Positions 12,896 through 51,331 are shown, counted from the stretch's first letter. The stretch: 51,911 nucleotides of DNA from an uncultured Candidatus Saccharibacteria bacterium (GCA_964453075.1 CAYVNM010000006.1:1-51911), one strand, 5' to 3'. Numbers and translations are program-made. Notes: generated from the sequence alone by a model not told the origin.

Positions 12896-12987
12896 ATAGC
12901 AGGATTATACCCTAAAACCTATAAAGAAGTTATGGTATTGATTTTTATATATAAGTATGATATAATTGAGTTCAGGAGATGCTTACA

Positions 12988-13218
12988 ATGTCTGGAACTG
13001 AATTCGGTGTGGGTTTCGCTGGAGTCGTTCTCCTGGCCTTGATTTGGGGCCTGAAGGCGGACGGGTATTTTCAGAAATGCAAGAAGTGTGGCAGTCGACT
13101 GACTACTGTGCGTGGTTCGTACCACACTTCACACTGGATTTACGTGAGGTACGTTCACTGTTGGAGTTGTGGTACCAACACCTGGCCGCCTCCGTGGCAT
13201 CTGGTGAACAAAGAGTAA
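12988..13218 (+). CDS. hypothetical small membrane-anchored zinc-ribbon-like protein (GC-rich cassette C2)
   Basis: TTGATT(12938)-17 nt-TATAAT(12961). AGGAG 9 nt before ATG 12988. 76 aa with an N-terminal TM helix and CKKC..17 residues..CWSC. Hairpin CTCAACAC..GTGTTGAG downstream. Confidence 0.55.
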   Translation: MSGTEFGVGFAGVVLLALIWGLKADGYFQKCKKCGSRLTTVRGSYHTSHWIYVRYVHCWSCGTNTWPPPWHLVNKE

Positions 13219-20207: not shown

Positions 20208-20259
20208 AATTTAGCTAAAATTACTTGACTTATTTTGTGGTAGTGGTATGATAATGAAA

Positions 20260-20640
20260 GATGACTCGACCCGCGCAAGGTTGCCCGGGCGACAACAGAC
20301 AGGCAGACGAGCCGAAAAAGGAGGTTGTGACCTACTACCCAATACGTGTTGAGGATGACAGAGGAAACTCTGCTCGAATCACACAAACCAGTTGGGCTGG
20401 TGAAATTACTAATCCTGTCTGAGTCGGGGCGGTCCCCGACAGGTGCCAGCTACCTTGAAAGGCTGGGCATATTAAAAAAAGAGAGCAAGGCGGTAAGACC
20501 TGCAAAGGTTTGAGGCGGCGGTCCGGGGGACCCACTCAAGACTTGTGGGTATACCGAAGCTCGAGGTGTGCGGAGGCGGGTCAGTGAGCCCGATGAGAAC
20601 GCACACAACAGGGGCAGAGTCAAAAAACTCTGCCCCTTTT
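20260..20640 (+). ncRNA. rnpB: probable RNase P RNA
   Basis: Blocks resembling bacterial RNase P RNA: ACAGGUGCCAGCUACCUUGAAAGGCUGGG (cf. GGGUGCCAGGUAACGCCUGGG), AGAGAGCAAGGCGGUAAGACC, CAGUGAGCCCGAUGAGAACGCACACAACAGG (cf. CAGUGAGC..GAUGAAUGAC..CACGACAGAA). Promoter TTGACT(20225). Ends in GGGGCAGAGT-caaaaaa-ACTCTGCCCC-TTTT. The ends are approximate. Confidence 0.7.
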
Positions 20641-20680
20641 CTATTTTCCAAAAAAACACCTTTTACGTTATACTGTTGGT

Positions 20681-21736
20681 ATGTCAGAGGCATTATATAG
20701 AAAATACAGGCCTAATAAATTCTCCGAAGTCTTGGGTCAGGATCATATTGTTAAAGTACTTGAGGCCGAAGTTAAGTCCGGAGAAATTTCTCACGCCTAC
20801 TTATTTGCCGGGACTCGTGGTACTGGCAAGACATCCATTGCTAGAATTTTTGCAAAAGAAATAGGAACATCTCAAAACGATATTTACGAAATAGATGCCG
20901 CTAGTAATACCAGTGTAGATGATATTCGTGCTCTGAATGAATCGGTTTTTACACTTCCTTTTGAATCAAAATACAAAGTCTATATTTTGGACGAGGTTCA
21001 CATGCTTTCCAAATCAGCATCGAACGCATTACTGAAAACACTAGAAGAACCACCAGCTCATGTTGTATTTATCTTGGCTACTACAGAAACACATAAAATC
21101 CCGGAAACAGTCTTGTCTCGTTGTGAGGTTTATACATTCAAAAAACCAAGTCAGGAAGTCTTGAAAAAAATGATTGTTTCAGTTGCTAAGAAAGAGGGCT
21201 ACACAATGGACGATGCGTCCGTAGAGCTCATCGCTATTCTAGGTGACGGTTCATTCCGCGATACACAAGGGATTATTCAAAAGGTACTTTCATACACTAA
21301 GGACCTGCCCACCCTCCCGAAGAGGGAGCAGGCGGGCAAAAAAATATCCGAGGATGAGGTGAGATTGGTCACTGGGGCGCCTGCAGTTGATCTTGTGCAC
21401 GGAGTTATTTCTGCTATAGCGGATAAGGACATAAAGACGGGTCTCTCAAGTGTCAGAAAGGCTGTTGAACAAAATATAGATATGTCTGTTTTTCAAAAAT
21501 TAATCTTGCATACTGCCAGGGCTGTGCTACTTGTGCGTTTCGGAGTAGGGGATTTGGTTCGAGATGATTTCTCCGAAAAAGAGTTTGAATTTATAAATGG
21601 TTTGGCAAAAAAGGATGGAGCTTTTTCTTCTCAAACATTGGTGGAGCTTTTGACTGCTTATGAGAGGACCACTGGGGCGTATATTCCTCAACTCCCATTA
21701 GAACTAGCTTTGGTGAACATAATAGAAAACAAATAA
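20681..21736 (+). CDS. dnaX: DNA polymerase III subunit gamma/tau (short)
   Basis: Walker A GTRGTGKTS, DEVHMLS, LSRCEVY sensor motif. 351 aa. In-frame GC-rich palindromic insert at 21304-21337. Confidence 0.9.
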   Translation: MSEALYRKYRPNKFSEVLGQDHIVKVLEAEVKSGEISHAYLFAGTRGTGKTSIARIFAKEIGTSQNDIYEIDAASNTSVDDIRALNESVFTLPFESKYKVYILDEVHMLSKSASNALLKTLEEPPAHVVFILATTETHKIPETVLSRCEVYTFKKPSQEVLKKMIVSVAKKEGYTMDDASVELIAILGDGSFRDTQGIIQKVLSYTKDLPTLPKREQAGKKISEDEVRLVTGAPAVDLVHGVISAIADKDIKTGLSSVRKAVEQNIDMSVFQKLILHTARAVLLVRFGVGDLVRDDFSEKEFEFINGLAKKDGAFSSQTLVELLTAYERTTGAYIPQLPLELALVNIIENK

Positions 21737-21882: not shown

Positions 21883-22053
21883 GTGCGCGCAACTCTACTG
21901 GCTTTGGCCACGGTGGTGCCAATTCGGCAGGCGCTTCTCTCGTGGTTTGGCAAAGATCTAGGTCTTTGGGCACTCGTGCTCTTCGGTGTCGTGGCGCTGT
22001 TCGTCAGCTATCGCATCAACCGGCGGAGGAACCCTCCTTCGTCAGCACTCTGA
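21883..22053 (+). CDS. hypothetical 56-aa hydrophobic protein (GC-rich cassette C4; GTG start)
   Basis: Not in the track. TTGACA(21801) with a TATAAT-like box. GGGAGG 5 nt before GTG 21883. Product MRATLLALATVVPIRQALLSWFGKDLGLWALVLFGVVALFVSYRINRRRNPPSSAL. Terminator CGCCGTTCGGT-ctagc-ACCGGACGGCG-TTTTCGTTTTT (22075-22112). Confidence 0.45.
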   Translation: MRATLLALATVVPIRQALLSWFGKDLGLWALVLFGVVALFVSYRINRRRNPPSSAL

Positions 22054-29785: not shown

Positions 29786-30046
29786 TCAGAACAGCCTTCG
29801 GAGACACTCTGACCAGATTCTGAGGTCCTTCATGTCCCTCGGACCAAAGTCCAGCTTCAGGATGTCTTCCTTGGCCTCTTCATCGGAGAGGTTTCCTTCC
29901 CGCCAGCGTTTGTCGATAGCCCCAAGGATGTACGCACTGACGATCTCCACCTCTCTTATCTCGAGATAGAAGTCGATGTTTGGTTGCTCATTCTCGCTCA
30001 GATATTTGCGCGAGAGCTCTTTCAGGGTCTCTTTGTTTGTGTGCAT
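29786..30046 (-). CDS. hypothetical protein (GC-rich cassette C8)
   Basis: Minus-strand TTGATT-17 nt-TATTGT. GGAGAG SD 4 nt before the ATG. 86 aa. Terminator GGCGGTGGGAC-gaaa-GTTTCACCGCC-TTTTGATTT (29741-29768). Confidence 0.55.
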   Translation of the reverse strand: MHTNKETLKELSRKYLSENEQPNIDFYLEIREVEIVSAYILGAIDKRWREGNLSDEEAKEDILKLDFGPRDMKDLRIWSECLRRLF

Positions 30047-34486: not shown

Positions 34487-34804
34487 ATGAGTCGATCTGT
34501 CAGGGCAGAAGGCAAGCTTCCAAAAGGAAGCAAACCAATCCCAGAGGCAATCAGTGCTCTGAAGCACGTCGTGGACCTTCCGGAAGTTCGGAAGGTGGTT
34601 CACGATCGTCCTATGGTTGTCAGGTGCGGCAAGCCGTACTTGGCAGTCAGCGCTGTCTGCAAGGATGGTCTCAGGGTTCGGATTCGTGGTGGTGGCCAGA
34701 TTCAGCACATCTTCGTGAAGTGCGAAAGTCCCATGGTCATCAAGGATCTCATCGAGAGTGCCTGGGCCAGAAGGCGCCCTGGAGCCTTCAGCAAGCGTTC
34801 CTAG
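34487..34804 (+). CDS. hypothetical protein (GC-rich cassette C10)
   Basis: TTGACT(34422)-17 nt-TATGGT(34445). 105 aa basic protein. Terminator ACGACC..GGTCGT-TTTTTTT. Confidence 0.55.
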   Translation: MSRSVRAEGKLPKGSKPIPEAISALKHVVDLPEVRKVVHDRPMVVRCGKPYLAVSAVCKDGLRVRIRGGGQIQHIFVKCESPMVIKDLIESAWARRRPGAFSKRS

Positions 34805-35986: not shown

Positions 35987-36106
35987 CTAGTAGTGGGTGC
36001 CTCCCCACGTTGGCGATGTGATCGGCTTCTTCGTTGTGGTGGCGGCAATTGTTGCTGCTACCACAACTCCGGCGATGAGTGCGCTGACGACGACGATTTT
36101 TTTCAC
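35987..36106 (-). CDS. hypothetical 39-aa hydrophobic peptide (GC-rich cassette C11; GTG start)
   Basis: Not in the track. GGGAG 7 nt before the GTG. Product MKKIVVVSALIAGVVVAATIAATTTKKPITSPTWGGTHY. Terminator GGGGTGGATCT-gaga-AGATCCATCCC-GATCTTTTTT. Confidence 0.4.
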   Translation of the reverse strand: MKKIVVVSALIAGVVVAATIAATTTKKPITSPTWGGTHY

Positions 36107-36248
36107 AAGAACACTCCCTGTGCACCTGCCCAACCATCATGATTGGTGCAGTCCTTTGCTAGTAAAACATATTTCAAATTATTTTGTCAAAGGTTGTATG
36201 TGAAAACTGGCAGGACCTGTGTAGAGGACCTGCCAGTTCGTGTCCGCT

Positions 36249-36383
36249 TTATTCGGACGGGTTGCTTGGTGGAGTCTTCTTCTTGAGAAAGGCGAAGGCC
36301 CCCATGATGAGCACACACAGAAAGATCAGGGCGAGAGCACCACCCAGTGCTCCCATGTCGTGGTTCGTGGTTGCAATAAACAT
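36249..36383 (-). CDS. hypothetical 44-aa single-TM peptide (GC-rich cassette C12)
   Basis: Not in the track. Minus-strand TTGACA-17 nt-TATTTT. Product MFIATTNHDMGALGGALALIFLCVLIMGAFAFLKKKTPPSNPSE. Terminator CTGGCAGGTCCT-ctacac-AGGTCCTGCCAG-TTTTC. Confidence 0.4.
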   Translation of the reverse strand: MFIATTNHDMGALGGALALIFLCVLIMGAFAFLKKKTPPSNPSE

Positions 36384-40750: not shown

Positions 40751-42004
<1,254 letters not shown>

Positions 42005-42044
42005 AGCCCTTGACTTATTTTGTGGTCGGGTGTATAATTAATTG

Positions 42045-42316
42045 TAGAGGTGGTGGCGCTCCTGAGAGATCGAGAAAGTCGACGAGACGAGAAGCAAAAC
42101 CGCAAAACCGCAAAACCGCAAAACCGCAAAACCGCAAAACCGCAAAACCGAAAAAGTAAAAGCTGACGAGAAGCAACTCTCGGGTACGATGCGCTGCCAC
42201 CTCAGTTCCTTGATTCTGATCCCCCGAGTCACTCGGTCTAGGGGGCCTGCCGCAAGGTGGGTTACTACCGGGTTCATCTGGGCGGGGTTCGTAGCTGCAG
42301 CTACACCCCGCCTTTT
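42045..42316 (+). ncRNA. unclassified ncRNA with 7 tandem CAAAACCG units
   Basis: Promoter TTGACT(42010)-17 nt-TATAAT(42033). Helix GAGGTGGTGGCGC(42047)/GCGCTGCCACCTC(42191) and helix CCTGAGAG/CTCTCGGG, both with G-U pairs possible only on the + strand. 7 x CAAAACCG lie at 42095-42150 in the enclosed loop. A second domain ends in the terminator GGCGGGGTtcGTAGCTGCAGCTACACCCCGCC-TTTT. Confidence 0.6.
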
Positions 42317-42348
42317 CTATTATATATAATTTATTGTATAGTGTTGGG

Positions 42349-44394
42349 ATGAATTTCCAGATTAAACGCGATTTTAAACCTGCGGGGGATCAACCACAGG
42401 CCATAGAAAAACTTGTAAAAGGTGTGAAAACAGGTCTGCGACATCAGACTCTTTTTGGAGTGACTGGTTCCGGCAAAACTTTTACAGTTGCCAATGTGAT
42501 ACAGGAAATTAACAAGCCAACTCTTATTATTGCTCACAACAAGACACTAGCTGCGCAACTTGCTCAAGAATATAAAGAATTTTTTCCAAATAATGCTGTT
42601 CATTATTTTGTTTCTTACTACGACTACTATCAACCAGAAGCGTATATGCCAGTTTCTGATACATATATAGAAAAAGAAGCGATGATAAATGAAGAAATAG
42701 ACAGACTTCGTCACGCATCAACCCAGGCATTATTGACTCGCAAAGATGTGATTATTGTCGCTTCTGTGTCCTGTATATATGGTCTTGGTTCTCCAGCAGA
42801 ATATGAAAAAGTTAATTTGAAAGTAAGTCAGGGAGAAAAAATTTCTCGTGCGGAGTTTATTCGTAAACTCATAGATATTCATTACGAGAGAACAACCGCA
42901 GATTTGAAACCGGGAATGTTTCGAGCTATTGGTAATATGTTGGAGATAATGCCTATATCCCAAAAGCAGATTTATAGAATTGAGATAGAAGAAGGGAAGA
43001 TAAAAGAAATTTTGGTCATAGATGCTATTACTCGTGCTGTTTTAGAATCAACACCTGCTTTTTTCTTGTTCCCAGCAAAACATTTTATATCTACAAAAGA
43101 ACAAAACGAAAGAGCATTTAAAACAATAAAAGCGGAATTAACTACAAGGCTTAAGGAACTAGAAAAAGAAGGAAAACTTCTGGAAGCGGAGAGACTTAAA
43201 AGACGCACCTCATATGACCTAGCTTTAATTCGTGAGATGGGGTATTGCAATGGAATAGAAAATTACTCCAGACATTTTTCTGGTAAAAAGCCCGGAGAGG
43301 CACCAGACACATTGCTGTCATATTTTCCACATAAACCAGATGGTACCCCAGATTTTCTTACGGTTATAGATGAGTCACATGTTTCTGTTCCACAGATAGG
43401 AGCTATGCATGGAGGTGATTCTTCCAGAAAACAAGCATTGGTGGATTATGGTTTTAGACTTCCTAGTGCCAAAGATAACAGACCTTTAACTTTCAAAGAA
43501 TTTGAAGAAAGAGTTGGCCAGACAATATATACATCTGCCACACCTGGTGAATACGAGAGAGAGCATAGTGAGCAGATAGTAGAGCAGATTATACGCCCAA
43601 CAGGACTTATTGATCCTGTGGTGGAGGTTAGGCCTATAGTTGAAAAAGGAAAATACAAAGGTCAGATTTTTGATTTTATAAAAGAGGCAGAGACGGCTAT
43701 CAAAAAAGGTGGTCGTGTTATCGCAACAACCTTAACCAAAAAAATGGCAGAGGATTTGAGCGAGTATCTAAAGGAAAAGGGAATTCGAGCTGAATACTTG
43801 CATAGTGATATAAAAACAATACAAAGAATTGAAATACTAACTTCTCTTCGTCGGGGTGAGTTTGATTGTCTGGTCGGTGTGAATCTGTTGCGAGAAGGTT
43901 TGGATTTGCCGGAAGTCACTCTTATCGGGATCCTTGATGCCGACAAAGAAGGATTTCTCAGAAGTGATACAAGTTTGATACAGATTATAGGTCGCGCAGC
44001 TAGAAATGTTCTTGGTAAGGTTATCTTATACGCAGATACGGAGACAGAATCTATGAAAAGAGCTATAGATGAGACAAATCGCCGTCGTGCTTTGCAGATT
44101 GATTATAATAAAAAACACGGAATTACTCCAAAAACAATCATAAAAAAGATTCAGGATATTACTGAACAAATGAAAACAGAACATGCCAAGACTGTAGACA
44201 GTTTGTTACACATGGATGAGAAAATGTTTACAAAAGATCCACAAAAACTAATCAAAATAAAAGAAAGGCAAATGGATGGGGCAGTCAAGATTTTGGATTT
44301 TGAAACCGCTGCAATACTGCGAGATGAAATTGCGGAATTAATAAAAAGACTTGCACCAAAAAGAGAGAAAAAATCAAAAAATAAATTAGAATAA
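42349..44394 (+). CDS. uvrB: excinuclease ABC subunit B
   Basis: GVTGSGKTF, DESHV, helicase motifs, C-terminal UVR domain (FETAAILRDEI). Start at ATG 42349. Confidence 0.95.
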   Translation: MNFQIKRDFKPAGDQPQAIEKLVKGVKTGLRHQTLFGVTGSGKTFTVANVIQEINKPTLIIAHNKTLAAQLAQEYKEFFPNNAVHYFVSYYDYYQPEAYMPVSDTYIEKEAMINEEIDRLRHASTQALLTRKDVIIVASVSCIYGLGSPAEYEKVNLKVSQGEKISRAEFIRKLIDIHYERTTADLKPGMFRAIGNMLEIMPISQKQIYRIEIEEGKIKEILVIDAITRAVLESTPAFFLFPAKHFISTKEQNERAFKTIKAELTTRLKELEKEGKLLEAERLKRRTSYDLALIREMGYCNGIENYSRHFSGKKPGEAPDTLLSYFPHKPDGTPDFLTVIDESHVSVPQIGAMHGGDSSRKQALVDYGFRLPSAKDNRPLTFKEFEERVGQTIYTSATPGEYEREHSEQIVEQIIRPTGLIDPVVEVRPIVEKGKYKGQIFDFIKEAETAIKKGGRVIATTLTKKMAEDLSEYLKEKGIRAEYLHSDIKTIQRIEILTSLRRGEFDCLVGVNLLREGLDLPEVTLIGILDADKEGFLRSDTSLIQIIGRAARNVLGKVILYADTETESMKRAIDETNRRRALQIDYNKKHGITPKTIIKKIQDITEQMKTEHAKTVDSLLHMDEKMFTKDPQKLIKIKERQMDGAVKILDFETAAILRDEIAELIKRLAPKREKKSKNKLE

Positions 44395-44697: not shown

Positions 44698-44839
44698 TTT
44701 TGGCCTTTCTGGGATGCGATCCCGGAAGTTTTTTCTGATAAAACACTAACATTACTAGGTTTGATGTCAAATTTGTTTATTTGTGGTATTATGTCTGTCT
44801 ACCCCTATACCTATACGAAGAAACGGGGTCTCTTTATGT

Positions 44840-47464
44840 ATGAAAAAAGAAAAACAAGATCTAATCATAGTTAAGGGTGCTAGAACGCACAATCTTAAAA
44901 ATATAACTTTGGAAATGCCACGAAACAAAATGGTGGTTTTTACTGGTTTGTCTGGTTCGGGTAAATCGTCTTTAGCCTTTGATACTATTTTTGCCGAGGG
45001 ACAGAGAAGGTATGTGGAATCTCTTTCTTCTTATGCCCGTCAGTTTTTGAGACAGATGCAGAAACCAGATGTAGATGAAATATCAGGACTTTCTCCAGCT
45101 ATTTCTATAGATCAAAAATCACGATCAAATAATCCACGCTCTACCGTTGCTACTATTACAGAGATTTATGATTATCTACGTATTTTGTATTCACGCATAG
45201 GGCATCCACACTGTTTGGTTTGTGGAGATGAAATAAAAAAACTTTCAAACGAGGAAATTAAAAATTTCATTTTAGAAAAAATTGATGCAAAGAAAAAAAC
45301 AATAACAACTAGTACAAAAAAAATTCCTCTTCCTATCTATGTTGAGATTTTTGCACCAGTGGTTAGAGGAAGAAAGGGAGAGTATTACCAACTGCTTTAT
45401 GACCTACTCGGTAAGGGCTATTCACATGTATTAGTAGACGGTGTTCGCAAATCACTTCGTGAAAGAATAGAAATGACAAAAACCAAAAGACATTCCATAG
45501 ATGTTCTGGTGGACAGCATTTCTCTTTTGGATTTTAAAACAGATGTTAAGAGTGCCGAGGAAAGATTGGCTGAGGATTTGGAAAAAGCTCTAAACGAATC
45601 AGATGGACAGGTAAAAATAATGTTTCGTGATGTCGCGCAGGAGTCTAATAAAGAATACATTCCTGAAGAATTTTTCATGTCTTCAAAACTGTCCTGTCCA
45701 AAAGATGGTTATTCATATCCAGAAGTGGAACCAAGACTATTTTCTTTTAATTCTCCTTATGGAGCATGTCCCGAATGTAATGGTTTGGGAACAAGACATT
45801 TTTTTGGAAAAGAACTTTGCCCTAAGTGTAACGGCGCGAGACTTCGTGAGGAAGCTTTGCATGTTCTGATAGGAAACAAAAATATAGTTGAACTAACTAG
45901 AATGTCTATCAAAGACGCTTATGATTTTGTAATGAATTTGAAACTCACTGAACGTGAAAAAAATATTTCAAAAGTCGTGATGAGAGAAATAGAATCCAGA
46001 CTTCTTTTTATGATAAATGTTGGTATTGAATATTTGTCTCTTGATCGTAGAGCTCATACTCTTTCTGGTGGTGAAGCTCAGCGTATTCGTCTAGCCTCAC
46101 AGTTAGGCTCTGGTTTGGTTGGTGCTTTATACGTTTTGGATGAACCAACTATTGGATTGCATTCTAGAGATAACGACAGACTTGTTAAAACACTTCTCAA
46201 TCTTCGTGATTTGGGTAATACAATAATAGTAGTGGAGCATGATGAGGATACAATATTTGCTTCTGATTATATTGTTGACATAGGTCCAGGTGCTGGTGTT
46301 CATGGAGGTAATGTTATTGTGGCCGACTATTTGGATGATTTGATTACTGCCAAGAAAAATATTTCAGGTTCTGTCACTTTGGATTATTTGAGAGGGGACA
46401 GGGTTTTGGAAGTGCCAGAAGAAAGGAGAGACACACCAAAAGGAGAGTTGTCTATTCGTGGTGGAAAAATATTTAATATTAAAAATTTGAATGTGGATAT
46501 TCCGCTTGGTAGATTTGTGGCGGTGACGGGAGTTTCTGGTTCTGGTAAGTCTTCTTTTGTCTACGAAATTTTGCATAGAAATCTACAAGCCAGATTTGAG
46601 AGAAAATATAGATCTGCGGAAATATACAATTGTAAGTCTTTTACAGGTACGGAATATCTTGGCAGGGCTATTTTGATAGATCAATCTCCGATAGGACGTA
46701 CCCCACGTTCAAATCCAGCTACATATACTGGAGCGTGGTCTTTTATACGTGATTTGTTTGCGGAAACTGCAGAAGCACGTGCTCGTGGGTGGAAAGCAAA
46801 TAGATTTTCTTTTAATGTGAAGGGTGGAAGGTGTGAGACTTGTCAGGGTAATGGAATGATAGAAGTTGAAATGCATTTTCTTCCTACCGTATATGTGCCT
46901 TGCGATGTTTGTAAAGGTAAAAGGTTTATGAAGGAGACTTTGGAGGTGCACTATAAAAAGAAAAATATTTACGATGTGTTAAAAATGACAGTTGAAGAAG
47001 CATTAAAGTTCTTTGAGGACATTCCATCTATTGCTGATAGATTGAAAACTCTGGACGAAGTTGGTCTTGGATATTTGGAACTCGGCCAGTCTGCTACTAC
47101 TTTGTCAGGTGGTGAGGCACAGAGAGTGAAAGTGTCATCAGAGTTGTTTCGTCCACACTTACAAAAAACAATTTATCTTTTAGACGAGCCAACAATCGGT
47201 TTGCACTATGAAGATGTCAAAAAATTAATTGAGATTTTGCAGAAGTTGGTAAACAAAGGAAATACGGTTGTTGTTATCGAGCACAATATGGATATTATAA
47301 AATCTTGCGACTATGTTATAGACATAGGTCCAGAAGGTGGTGATGGGGGAGGACAAATCGTTGCCAAAGGAACTCCAGAGGAAATTGCGAATAATGAAAA
47401 ATCATACACAGGTATTTATTTGAAAAAAGCTTTGAAGCAGTTTAGGGCGTATAGGAAGGGGTAA
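44840..47464 (+). CDS. uvrA: excinuclease ABC subunit A
   Basis: GARTHNLKN, two ABC modules ([18 protein letters not shown]; LSGGEAQR twice), CxxC zinc modules. Start at ATG 44840 rather than the track's GTG 44783. Confidence 0.95.
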
Positions 47465-47637
47465 AAAATCTCTTCCTCACCAAAACTTTTTCAGAGACGT
47501 TCGTCATTCCAGCGAATGACTCACTCTAGTCCTCGGCCATGACTTGTAAAGAGCCCCTCACTTCGTTCGGGGTCTATGACAAGACCATGCTCATGACCTG
47601 CGGATGCTCTGAAAAGATTTTGGCTCAACGAGATTTT
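47465..47637. repeat. structured palindromic element, copy 2
   Basis: Outer arms AAAATCTC..CCAAAACTTTTTCAGAG / CTCTGAAAAGATTTTGG..GAGATTTT. Inner hairpins GTCATTC-cagc-GAATGAC and GGCCATGA..TCATGACC. The core is shared with 2841-2997. Confidence 0.6.
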
Positions 47638-47711
47638 TTAAAGAGAATTAATTTTTAAAATGGAAATGGGCGCCGAGGGTTAGTCGGCGCCCGGGGTGGG
47701 TGTACTGTTGA

Positions 47712-47993
47712 TCAGCGCACTGCGCTGATCTTGAGGAAGCACTGAGCCTCTTCGAGGAGACTCCAAACGGACGAAGCTTGGGCCGTGTAGTCGTGCCTGA
47801 TGGGTGACCTGACTACCATAAGCTCGCTCATGAGTATGAGAGCGGCAGCCCAACCTGGCTGAAGTTGGAATCGTGCCACACTCTCCTTGTCAGTATCGTT
47901 GACGCCATTCTCGATGAAGACCTCGTTCTTCTTGAGGCCATCGCTGAGCCTCTTTGTCAGGATGGCCAACTGCTTCCTGTCGGTCTGGTTCAT
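47712..47993 (-). CDS. hypothetical protein (GC-rich cassette C14)
   Basis: GGAGGA SD 5 nt before the ATG. TATAAA -10 upstream. 93 aa. Terminator GGGCGCCGA-ctaaccc-TCGGCGCCC (47660-47690). Confidence 0.55.
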   Translation of the reverse strand: MNQTDRKQLAILTKRLSDGLKKNEVFIENGVNDTDKESVARFQLQPGWAAALILMSELMVVRSPIRHDYTAQASSVWSLLEEAQCFLKISAVR

Positions 47994-48087: not shown

Positions 48088-48321
48088 TCAGTGAACCGTT
48101 TGGGATCCTACTGTGTCATCCATCGCGTTCCAATAGAAGACAATATTGTGGAATGTAGCACCACGTTCCTTTAGGTGTAACAACAGTAGAGCCGTTACCA
48201 CGTCGTCCGTTATGCTCCTGGATCTTACTCCATGGATGGGTATGGTTTCCGGATAGTTCTCCGGCGTCTCGATCTCTTCTCCTTCAAGGGTTTCGTACCA
48301 CAGCTTGACATGGATGGTCAT
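48088..48321 (-). CDS. hypothetical protein (GC-rich cassette C15)
   Basis: AGGAGG 6 nt before ATG 48321 (the track uses a TTG two codons upstream). 77 aa acidic protein. Terminator AGAGCGCC..GGCGCTCT (48062-48090). Confidence 0.5.
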   Translation of the reverse strand: MTIHVKLWYETLEGEEIETPENYPETIPIHGVRSRSITDDVVTALLLLHLKERGATFHNIVFYWNAMDDTVGSQTVH

Positions 48322-48367
48322 GTACAACCTCCTTGATTAATATTAGCATGTAAAGTATTAATAGCAT

Positions 48368-51004: not shown

Positions 51005-51331
51005 CTACCAGAAGAGGATCTTGTGTGCGCAGATGATTTTGCGCAATCTTTTCCTGTAAGTCTTCTTCTCGGCCGAGGTGAGTGGAACGACCCTGAGAAG
51101 GAGTGTGTTTCTGCCAGGTGCCTTTCTGGGTTTTGACACAACCCATCCAGGCACAACCGCGTAGCTTCCGGTGTGGTTGTTGTAGGCTTGGAAGAAGATG
51201 ATGGAACCCTTTCTCACCTTCAACTCTCTCGGCGGGTCAAAGATCTGGCCATCTGTACCCGGAATCTCCAGGTATAGGCTATTCAAGTATGACTTCGGGT
51301 CATACTCGTAGATCTGAAATTTCTTGCTCAT
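51005..51331 (-). CDS. hypothetical protein (GC-rich cassette C17)
   Basis: Minus-strand TTGACT-17 nt-TACTGT. GAGGAGAA SD. 108 aa with a basic C-terminus. Confidence 0.55.
   Translation of the reverse strand: MSKKFQIYEYDPKSYLNSLYLEIPGTDGQIFDPPRELKVRKGSIIFFQAYNNHTGSYAVVPGWVVSKPRKAPGRNTLLLRVVPLTSAEKKTYRKRLRKIICAHKILFW

Follow-up and report, generated by a model that had tools for sequence, protein, structure and literature searches.

A putative small-RNA gene with a copy-number-polymorphic octanucleotide array between tgt and uvrB of a Patescibacteria genome

The tgt-uvrB gap and its gene signals

The DNA analysed here, called the window throughout, is the whole 51,911-nt stretch of contig CAYVNM010000006.1 (GCA_964453075.1), and the subject of this report is a putative non-coding RNA gene, with a tandem octanucleotide array in its body, that lies between tgt and uvrB. 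The source organism is, as judged from its sequence, a Paceibacteria/Zambryskibacteria-like bacterium of the candidate phyla radiation (CPR; Patescibacteria), and the best matches of its Tgt protein among the GTDB species representatives are metagenome-assembled genomes of Zambryskibacteria, Paceibacteria and Parcubacteria with at most 80% identity. The identities of Tgt (40772-42004), UvrB (42343-44394) and UvrA (44783-47464) were confirmed by Pfam, and an exact look-up of the UvrB protein returned no record. The RNA gene is placed in the tgt-uvrB gap, directly upstream of uvrB and in the orientation of uvrB. Related tgt-locus contigs that were compared with the window carry labels of the form L0xx.

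A sigma-70-type promoter, TTGACT-17-TATAAT, is present on the + strand at 42010-42038, where the preliminary description of this DNA had placed it (42010/42033). It is near-consensus, with 11 of 12 matches, it is the top-scoring site in a promoter scan of the 2.5 kb from 41000 to 43500, and it is conserved in the relatives L088 and L092. The transcript would probably start near 42045-42046. The first 17 nt of the promoter, TTGACTTATTTTGTGGT, were found again, exact, at 20225, in agreement with the earlier description, and a similar promoter stands at an equal offset behind tgt in L004 and L005 (7-13 nt past the tgt stop). At the other end, folding, the repeat finder and helix 4 of the 3'-domain alignment all identify an intrinsic terminator on the + strand at 42281-42316, GGCGGGGU..GUAGC-UGCA-GCUAC.ACCCCGCC followed by UUUU, and this is the strong terminator that had been described, with its U-run behind the hairpin. 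Its DNA arms, GGCGGGGT...ACCCCGCC, span 42281-42312 (42281-42288 and 42305-42312) and are followed by TTTT. A simple terminator scan overlooked it because the stem is interrupted. The terminator is also kept in L085, L088 and L092, and L004 has a similar terminator context, GUUCUUCG-UGGGCGG.

When the two strands were folded, the + strand had a minimum free energy (MFE) of -96.3 kcal/mol, with z = -2.24 against shuffles, whereas the - strand had an MFE of -90.9 kcal/mol and, with z = +0.42, was no better than shuffles. The G-U pairs in the two closing helices P1 and P2 (see below), the promoter and the U-run point to the + strand as the one that is transcribed, which is the strand chosen in the preliminary description. 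The signals also support its view of a stand-alone non-coding RNA gene that runs from promoter to terminator, and the independently transcribed product would be about 270 nt long, from ~42046 to 42316 on the + strand.

Since it directly precedes uvrB in the same orientation, the element could be a cis-acting uvrB leader or attenuator, in which the promoter at 42010 would drive uvrB, the terminator at 42281-42316 would represent the off state of something like a riboswitch, and a CCCCC run would alternate its pairing; as read from the sequence, this run could pair with a GGGGG run or with the GGCGGGG arm of the terminator. We consider this very improbable, as a separate, conserved promoter, TTGTATAGT, lies 6 nt ahead of the uvrB ATG, and it is present and sufficient in L086, L095 and L008, which are free of the element. 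Moreover, no riboswitch family matches, including the preQ1 classes of Rfam, and the 5' domain of the element is freely replaceable, for example in L085.

The octanucleotide array and its copy number

The array is made up of seven perfect copies of GCAAAACC (42094-42149) and a degenerate eighth unit, GAAAAAGU, and thus extends over 42094-42155 on the + strand. Tandem Repeats Finder reported period 8, 7.8 copies, 98% matches and a score of 117 for 42094-42155, and no other tandem repeat of the 52-kb window is strong, the rest having at most 2.8 copies and a score of at most 69. The 16-mer CAAAACCGCAAAACCG occurs 6 times compared to an expectation of 0.02. A direct repeat found by the repeat finder (D2), GACGAGAAGCAA, lies on both sides, the left copy (42086-42097) running into the first array unit and the right copy standing at 42165-42176, and a longer direct repeat (D3) joins 42075-42087 with 42159-71. 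Tandem Repeats Finder and the repeat finder therefore agree with the earlier account of seven tandem units flanked by two boxes. A conserved box, GAAAGUCGACG (42074-42084), has its core, GAAGUCGACG, in common with L088 and L092.

The number of units differs between strains that are otherwise nearly identical. In L082, which comes from an independent sample and encodes an identical Tgt protein, there are 7 units as in the window, whereas in L081 and L084, which also encode an identical Tgt protein and come from two JGI samples, there are 5 units and the remaining sequence is identical; the two alleles differ by 16 nt. A further contig with an identical Tgt protein, L083, breaks off within the array. 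Three of the four short identical-Tgt contigs (L083, L081 and L084) end inside the array or within ~90 nt after it, which would fit breaks in the assembly graph where strains differ at the locus. In L088, L092 and L096 there is one unit only, GAAGCAAAACUUGAAAAGUA, in the apical loop of these close relatives. The nucleotide identity of tgt to that of the window is 95% for L088 and 85% for L092. All informative contigs are members of the window's own 90% Tgt cluster; L088 is identical to L089, L090 and L091, the L092 group also comprises L093 and L096, and there are four distinct homologous sequences in all.

The window, L088 and L092 have in common the promoter, P1 and P2, the GAAGUCGACG box and the 3' domain, and the GCAAAAC unit is single in the homologues. 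In L088 and L092 the 5' domain folds into an extended, imperfectly paired hairpin of helices P1 to P4, and its A-rich apical loop of 27 nt, CAUUGAAGCAAAACUUGAAAAGUAGGUA, has one CAAAAC unit inside an 8-nt proto-repeat, CAAAACUU-GAAAAGUA. When the array of the window was collapsed, local alignment of the 5' domain to that of L088 gave a score of 27 compared to a shuffle maximum of 22, and the aligned loop runs AAGTCGACG...GAAGCAAAAC..GAAAAGTA. That the homologous loop of the relatives holds one unit, together with the polymorphism of 5 and 7 units, argues that the array is a young expansion by slippage, and the perfect identity of the units likewise argues for recent slippage and not for an old functional array. 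We therefore could not uphold the proposal that the seven units form a conserved multi-site sponge, since the copy number is 1, 5 or 7 across the relatives. Of the conservation check that had been proposed along with it, the closing helices came out as kept and the repeat number did not. This holds a caution for scans made on sequence only, as an array of identical motifs that looked like a sponge proved, by comparison with relatives, to be one conserved motif that was recently and polymorphically expanded.

The polymorphism also decides the question whether the element is translated. A small peptide could be encoded at 42050-42166 (+) or, with 79 aa, at 42038-42277 (-), or the RNA could resemble transfer-messenger RNA (tmRNA) with a tag frame GCA AAA CCG ... 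AAG UAA. In support of the latter, a frame from GCA to a stop can be read in the window (AKPQNRKT..KK*), L088 (AKLEK*) and L092 (ARLEK*), and the change of UAG to UAA from L088 to L092 keeps the stop; in support of the former, Prodigal called a minus-strand open reading frame (ORF) on L084. We regard these readings as most improbable and, in effect, refuted. The difference of 5 and 7 units shifts the frame, and 2-nt and 3-nt indels in the 3' domain of the homologues break the 42189 ORF, so coding was excluded for 42050-42166 (+), 42189-42329 (+) and 42038-42277 (-) alike. The + strand ORFs, 13, 26 and 38 aa as translated, are conserved neither in length nor in sequence, and no Shine-Dalgarno sequence is present. 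The preliminary description had held that an 8-nt period rules out a coding repeat; its conclusion stands, though the period alone leaves coding possible, because three units make 24 nt, and it is the copy-number polymorphism and the indels that carry the point. As for tmRNA, ARAGORN and the Rfam tmRNA models were negative, and there is neither a tRNA-like domain nor a 3' CCA context, the 5' end being paired with 42191-42203 and the 3' end being the terminator hairpin. Tags of tmRNA typically end in a hydrophobic C-terminus, and the putative tags have none. There is a likeness to tmRNA (SsrA) in the A-rich, ORF-like stretch from GCA to a stop with a pseudoknot-capable domain downstream, and the lengths are roughly comparable (~360 nt in E. 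coli tmRNA and ~270 nt in the element), but the element is without a tRNA-like acceptor/T-arm and CCA end and the frame is lost across the copy-number variants.

No known RNA family accounts for the element. When Rfam 15 was run with gathering thresholds on the whole window only tRNAs were found, and at E<=10 the region 41900-42450 gave two chance-level matches near 10 bits and nothing else; the homologous elements of L088, L092 and L085 and the elements of neighbouring lineages had no Rfam match either. The families without a match to the element include tmRNA, 6S, signal recognition particle (SRP) RNA, RNase P, CsrB/Rsm, CrcZ, Y RNA/YrlA and the preQ1 riboswitches, and ARAGORN found no tmRNA, standard or permuted. 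The earlier statement that the transcript matches none of tmRNA, SRP RNA and 6S RNA was thus borne out, and the Rfam search that had been suggested returned no family that explains the repeats. Several candidates were considered and rejected. A preQ1 riboswitch was suggested by the neighbouring tgt, but it has no Rfam match and the element is downstream of tgt. The 6S RNA is a ~180-nt rod with paired ends and a central two-sided bubble between long helices; in the hairpin of the L088 form the apical loop is the largest unpaired region, a 3' extension of ~120 nt follows it, and the Rfam 6S model was negative. No gene for a reverse transcriptase, for Hfq or CsrA, or for an effector guided by RNA was found in the 52-kb window, and a telomerase-like or reverse-transcriptase-template reading of CAAAACCG was dropped on the lack of a reverse transcriptase there and on the single unit of the relatives. 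A TIGR-Tas guide array or a type III toxin-antitoxin RNA was rejected, as the period is 8 nt without spacers and the neighbours are tgt, uvrB and uvrA; TIGR-Tas systems have ~36-nt repeats with spacers beside a Tas (Nop-domain) gene (PMC12045711). Type III toxin-antitoxin RNAs have processed units beside a ToxN-like gene. By full-text searching, no literature on regulatory RNAs, small RNAs or Hfq of CPR/Patescibacteria was found.

Predicted structure, selection and function

In the predicted fold of the + strand, P1 and P2 enclose a loop of ~108 nt that is nearly all unpaired, and this is followed by two 3' hairpins and the terminator hairpin. P1 is a 13-nt inverted repeat, GAGGTGGTGGCGC / GCGCTGCCACCTC, with 13 pairs of which 2 are G-U; its RNA strands are GAGGUGGUGGCGC (42047-42059) and GCGCUGCCACCUC (42191-42203), and it was identified by folding and by the repeat finder. 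P2, CCTGAGAG / CTCTCGGG, pairs CCUGAGAG (42061-42068) with CUCUCGGG (42177-42184) and is present in both the MFE and the centroid folds; in the fold of L088, GAGA/UCUC is found where the window has P2. Both helices that had been described, with their G-U pairs, are thus present. P1 was predicted independently in the folds of the window, of L088 (GAGAUGGUGA/UCACCAUUUC) and of L092 (AGAGAUGGUGACG/CGUCACCGUCUCU), and, as read from these sequences, two of its positions change from G-C to A-U on both sides while others change through G-U intermediates. Behind P1 comes a pyrimidine-rich linker (42204-42230), the counterpart of which is GUUCG-rich in L088, L092 and L085, and it ends in GAUCCCCCGAGU, which is invariant in all four variants. 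The CCCCC at 42221-42225 could pair with GGGGG at 42241-42245 in a putative pseudoknot, and these pairs are invariant in the four sequences.

The core of the 3' domain, as defined by the alignment, lies at 42231-42273, where Pa (42231-42237 with 42267-42273) surrounds Pb (42246-42251, a GCAA loop, and 42256-42261). The variants of Pa are all paired (A-U/G-U, U-G/U-A/C-G and C-G/U-G), those of Pb are C-G to U-A, U-G to C-G and G-U to A-U, and all 7 variable pairs of the domain remain paired. Standard pairs make up 99.2% of cells over the four distinct sequences, compared to 40-55% when the partners are slid. Covariation of the closing helices, which the preliminary description had proposed to examine, takes the form of helix-preserving substitutions in the homologues, with the weak statistics of four sequences that are taken up below.

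The conservation of the RNA was compared with that of tgt. Identity at fourfold-degenerate sites of tgt is 0.84 between the window and L088, 0.64 between the window and L085, and 0.58 between L088 and L092. Over their full length the RNAs of L088 and L092 have 89% identity, which rises to 93-97% in the 3' domain, whereas the directly flanking 3' end of tgt is 67-68% identical. Since the RNA is 89% identical where fourfold sites of tgt are 58% identical, the canonical RNA appears to be under purifying selection and hence functional, and since the adjacent end of tgt is 67-68% identical, the similarity of the two RNAs is not due to a recombination tract that reaches into the flanks. The locus can be regarded as a comparatively supported small-RNA gene in CPR bacteria, which have tiny genomes and depend on hosts, and no database model recognises it.

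The 3' domain of the window is 96% identical to that of the distant L085 and 83% identical to that of the sister L088, and L085 has a wholly different 5' domain. An alignment of the 5' domain of L085 as an inverted copy of that of the window was no better than shuffles, and this idea was rejected. The 5' modules are thus A (L088, L092), A* (window) and B (L085), the 3' alleles are alpha (window, L085) and beta (L088, L092), and because this distribution departs from the tgt tree the locus is a mosaic. The element is absent from L086, L095, L087 and L008, in which the gap is empty, and the gap of L086 retains just the tail of an L094-type terminator; L094 itself has an unrelated RNA-like element in the gap (1700-1925). 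Across 80 species the tgt-uvrB gap measures from -17 to 3091 nt and holds assorted GC-rich small ORFs or RNA-like elements. The RNA bodies of L004 and L005 are strongly structured (z = -8.4 and -5.5) and could not be aligned with that of the window; L005, a probable orthologue, has (GAAAAAA)3 in a GC-clamped hairpin loop, and L004, which is alike in promoter and position, has no A-rich loop. Searches further afield found no other homologue: blastn and nhmmer with the RNA against the tgt loci of 80 GTDB species representatives gave none, the 3'-domain covariance model R1 over 758 kb returned known members only, the repeat pattern and back-translated 3'-domain patterns had 0 matches in viral contigs, a peptide-pattern scan of JGI metagenomes had 0 among the matches listed, and a JGI metagenome scan with GATCCCCCGAGTNNNNNGGTCTAGGGGGC had 0 matches. 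As far as these sequences tell, the RNA gene is limited to a narrow Paceibacteria/Zambryskibacteria-like CPR clade, in a gap that is variable and recombination-prone, and it illustrates how a small-RNA gene evolves in the CPR group by module swapping, deletion and microsatellite expansion within a loop.

One reading of this variability, which we regard as unlikely, is that the tgt-uvrB gap may host a modular, fast-exchanged small-RNA cassette that presents a tandem A-tract platform on a hairpin, in which the array would serve as tunable binding sites for a single-strand-binding partner under diversifying evolution. There are at least three 5' modules and two 3' alleles, incongruent with the tgt phylogeny, and A-tract loops are found as (SAAAASUW)2 in L088, (CAAAACCG)5-7 in the window lineage and (GAAAAAA)3 in L005. 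If this were so, the diversifying evolution could stem, for example, from a conflict of the episymbiont with phages or with its host.

The same divergence might instead mean that the RNA gene is being lost and that the array and the duplication are neutral damage in an unconstrained gene. The window and its sister L088 are 95% identical in tgt but only 38-77% in the RNA body, with many gaps, the inner helices P3 and P4 are missing in the window, and the gene is deleted in L086 and L095, with the L094-type terminator remnant left in L086. Such decay is nevertheless quite improbable. The promoter, P1, P2, the 3' domain and the terminator of the window are all intact, the same sequence was recovered from the independent sample L082, and the 3' domain and its L085 counterpart have 96% identity though fourfold sites of tgt are 64% identical, which argues for a maintained or recently exchanged allele and not for drift.

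We consider it rather probable, from all of the above, that the element is a lineage-restricted functional small RNA whose apical-loop motif was recently and polymorphically expanded by slippage, and that the array is not an ancestral multi-site design. The canonical form, as in L088 and L092, would be a 5' hairpin with an A-rich loop, then a linker rich in GUUCG, two nested helices as the 3' module, in which a pseudoknot may also form, and the terminator. In the window lineage the first loop unit would have been amplified, most likely by replication slippage, to CAAAACCG x7 (x5 in other populations), and a duplication of ~20 nt (D2, D3) would now sit where the inner helices were; as judged from the fold of L088, the right-hand duplicated block would occupy the site of the inner helices of the canonical hairpin. 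A likely reason why P1 and P2 close a mostly unpaired loop of ~108 nt is that this duplication replaced the inner helices. The array would then be a young, copy-number-polymorphic simple-sequence repeat (SSR) in a tolerant loop, and a change in the number of repeats would at most alter the size of the loop or the copy number of the motif. The RNA most likely acts in trans, regulatory or protein-binding, and its surfaces would be the A-rich loop and the invariant C-rich 3' module; the single-stranded A-rich platform may be a functional surface even though the array is not conserved.

Five points weigh against this interpretation. Transcription and the ends of the transcript are predicted from sequence signals. 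The covariation statistics are weak, 44 of 500 shuffles reaching the observed score, because there are just four distinct homologous sequences. The difference of 5 and 7 copies could in principle reflect assembler errors; this is unlikely because each count was obtained in two independent assemblies and because the array of 56 nt is shorter than the reads of presumably ~150 nt in such data. Outside the element, the 52-kb window has no complement of the invariant C-rich box or of the repeat. Lastly, the expansion could be adaptive, because the unit lies in a conserved loop motif and the loop of L005 also has an A-tract repeat.

The last point leads to a reading in which the array is an adaptive multivalent platform or sponge, its units binding a protein specific for single-stranded RNA or a pyrimidine-rich RNA, and in which the increase from 1 to 5-7 copies was selected for titration. 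The unit derives from the loop motif GAAGCAAAAC..GAAAAGUA, which is conserved between L088 and L092 despite near-saturated synonymous sites; P1 and P2 would present the array as one essentially unpaired loop of the length given above; the probable orthologue L005, with a promoter of the same type and position, has a GC stem that closes the (GAAAAAA)3 loop; and the near-consensus promoter is common to another structured RNA (20225). We think it somewhat unlikely, given that the copy number is not conserved (1, 5 or 7 units), that the entire gene is dispensable in close relatives, that the surrounding 52-kb window encodes neither Hfq nor CsrA nor another candidate partner, and that L004, equal in promoter and position, has no A-rich loop. 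As read from its sequence, the RNA-level unit CAAAACCG has neither GGA nor an AAnAAnAA motif, and the units are perfect tandem copies whereas the motifs of known sponges are diverged and spread over separate hairpins. Of the protein sponge that had first been proposed, the conserved array is lost and a weaker form is kept by the conservation of the A-rich loop motif (L088/L092, L005). If copy number does tune binding, the natural alleles of 1, 5 and 7 units are a ready series for studying copy-number effects in RNA decoys.

This comparison extends to individual sponges. CsrB/RsmZ (GGA) and CrcZ (A-rich Hfq/Crc motifs) also have several short single-stranded motifs in a structured, terminator-ended small RNA with a strong promoter, and the motif of the element is A-rich as in CrcZ. 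Unlike in these RNAs, however, the copies of the element are perfect and tandem in one loop, their multiplicity of 1 to 7 is not maintained, there is no GGA or AAnAAnAA, and the Rfam models were negative. A second likeness is to the lineage-specific, C-rich trans-acting small RNAs of the RsaE/RoxS type: like them, the element stands alone between a promoter and an intrinsic terminator, it has a C-rich stretch, AUCCCCCGAG, that is invariant, and its pyrimidine-rich linker directly precedes the 3' hairpins; it differs from them in having no sequence or Rfam similarity, in that the C-run may be sequestered by the GGGGG pseudoknot, and in having no complementary target in the 52-kb window.

Taken as a young SSR, the array is close to the SSR or contingency loci of small-genome, host-associated bacteria. 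It has a perfect short unit with a length that is not a multiple of 3, its copy number is 5 or 7 in near-identical strains, it is an isolated outlier in the segment, and slipped-strand mispairing is the obvious mechanism. Of what characterises a contingency locus, a perfect repeat with copy-number polymorphism was found (98% matches, 7.8 copies; identical Tgt and flanks), whereas a placement that would switch expression on and off was not. Classical contingency loci lie in ORFs, promoters or the leaders of mRNAs targeted by small RNAs and switch expression, an example being the RepG target of H. pylori, where the SSR is in an mRNA leader targeted by the small RNA (PMC8295292). The array of the element, in contrast, is in the body of a non-coding RNA, between promoter and terminator, and there is no conserved ORF to switch. 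Because it is inside the apical loop, its length would alter the architecture of the RNA and not a frame or the spacing of a promoter.

Other elements of the gap and of the window

Other promoter-to-terminator elements without an Rfam match were seen in the tgt-uvrB gap of L006 (5392-5545), L004 (5250-5436), L005 (5304-5582) and L094 (1700-1925). The fold z of the three that were folded (L004, L005 and L006) was from -5.5 to -8.4, and the element of L006 has a tandem CAGAGUACUCC x2. The gaps of L009 and L019 hold small GC-rich ORFs, which, by eye, we take to encode proteins of the helix-turn-helix/excisionase type.

The remaining genes of the window are housekeeping genes (IF-2, ClpB, ParB, RelA/SpoT, TopA, DprA, SerRS, Dus, DnaX, ClpP, XseA, UvrC and Ddl). 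A second promoter-to-terminator structured RNA, of ~380 nt, lies at 20225-20645, flanked by dus and dnaX; it contains no ORF, and neither RNase P nor any other Rfam family matches it even at E<=10. By eye, it has what we take to be a P4-like arrangement of RNase P, GAGGAAA-CUCUGC ... ACAGGG-GCAGAG, plus a GGUGCCAG..CUGGG motif. The 3' P4-like strand doubles as the 5' arm of the terminator, which is odd. It has been reported by Lui et al. that many CPR RNase P RNAs fall below Rfam thresholds (PMC8172020), and since they so often evade Rfam, it is plausible that the element is a candidate RNase P RNA. Of the earlier claim that an RNase P RNA gene at 20225 shares the promoter of the tgt-uvrB element, the 17 shared nt therefore hold and the RNase P label is without an Rfam match at E<=10.

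Two related GC-rich structured elements of ~140 nt, 77% identical to each other, lie on the + strand at 2850-2995 and 47485-47640, one directly upstream of a class-V aminotransferase gene and the other just behind uvrA. Their stems are compensatory (CTGGAG/CTCCAG vs TCAGAG/CTCTGA, and GGTCGCA/TGCGACC vs GGCCATGA/TCATGACC), and they have a hairpin with a conserved CAGCG loop and conserved boxes TAGTCCTCGG, AAGAGCCC, TGACAAGACC and GACCTGCGG. No Rfam match was found for the pair, which is possibly an unclassified cis-regulatory or mobile RNA motif.

The genome has 37% GC, and many intergenic small ORFs of 44-108 aa with 48-59% GC were seen in it, several of which are hydrophobic. In the window they are at 12979-13218, 21883-22053, 29786-30046(-), 34487-34804, 35987-36133(-), 36249-36383(-), 47712-47993(-), 48088-48327(-) and 51005-51331(-), the minus strand being marked. 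Several appear to have their own promoters and terminators, and none of the 6 that were scanned matched Pfam. They have the look of accessory or foreign DNA that was inserted among housekeeping genes.

Finally, uvrB (42333-42345, TATAGT-GTTGGG-ATG) and dnaX (20669-20683, TATACT-GTTGGT-ATG) both have a -10-like hexamer, six bases and then the ATG, an arrangement which suggests that their mRNAs may be leaderless or near-leaderless. For uvrB it is conserved in relatives with or without the RNA gene.

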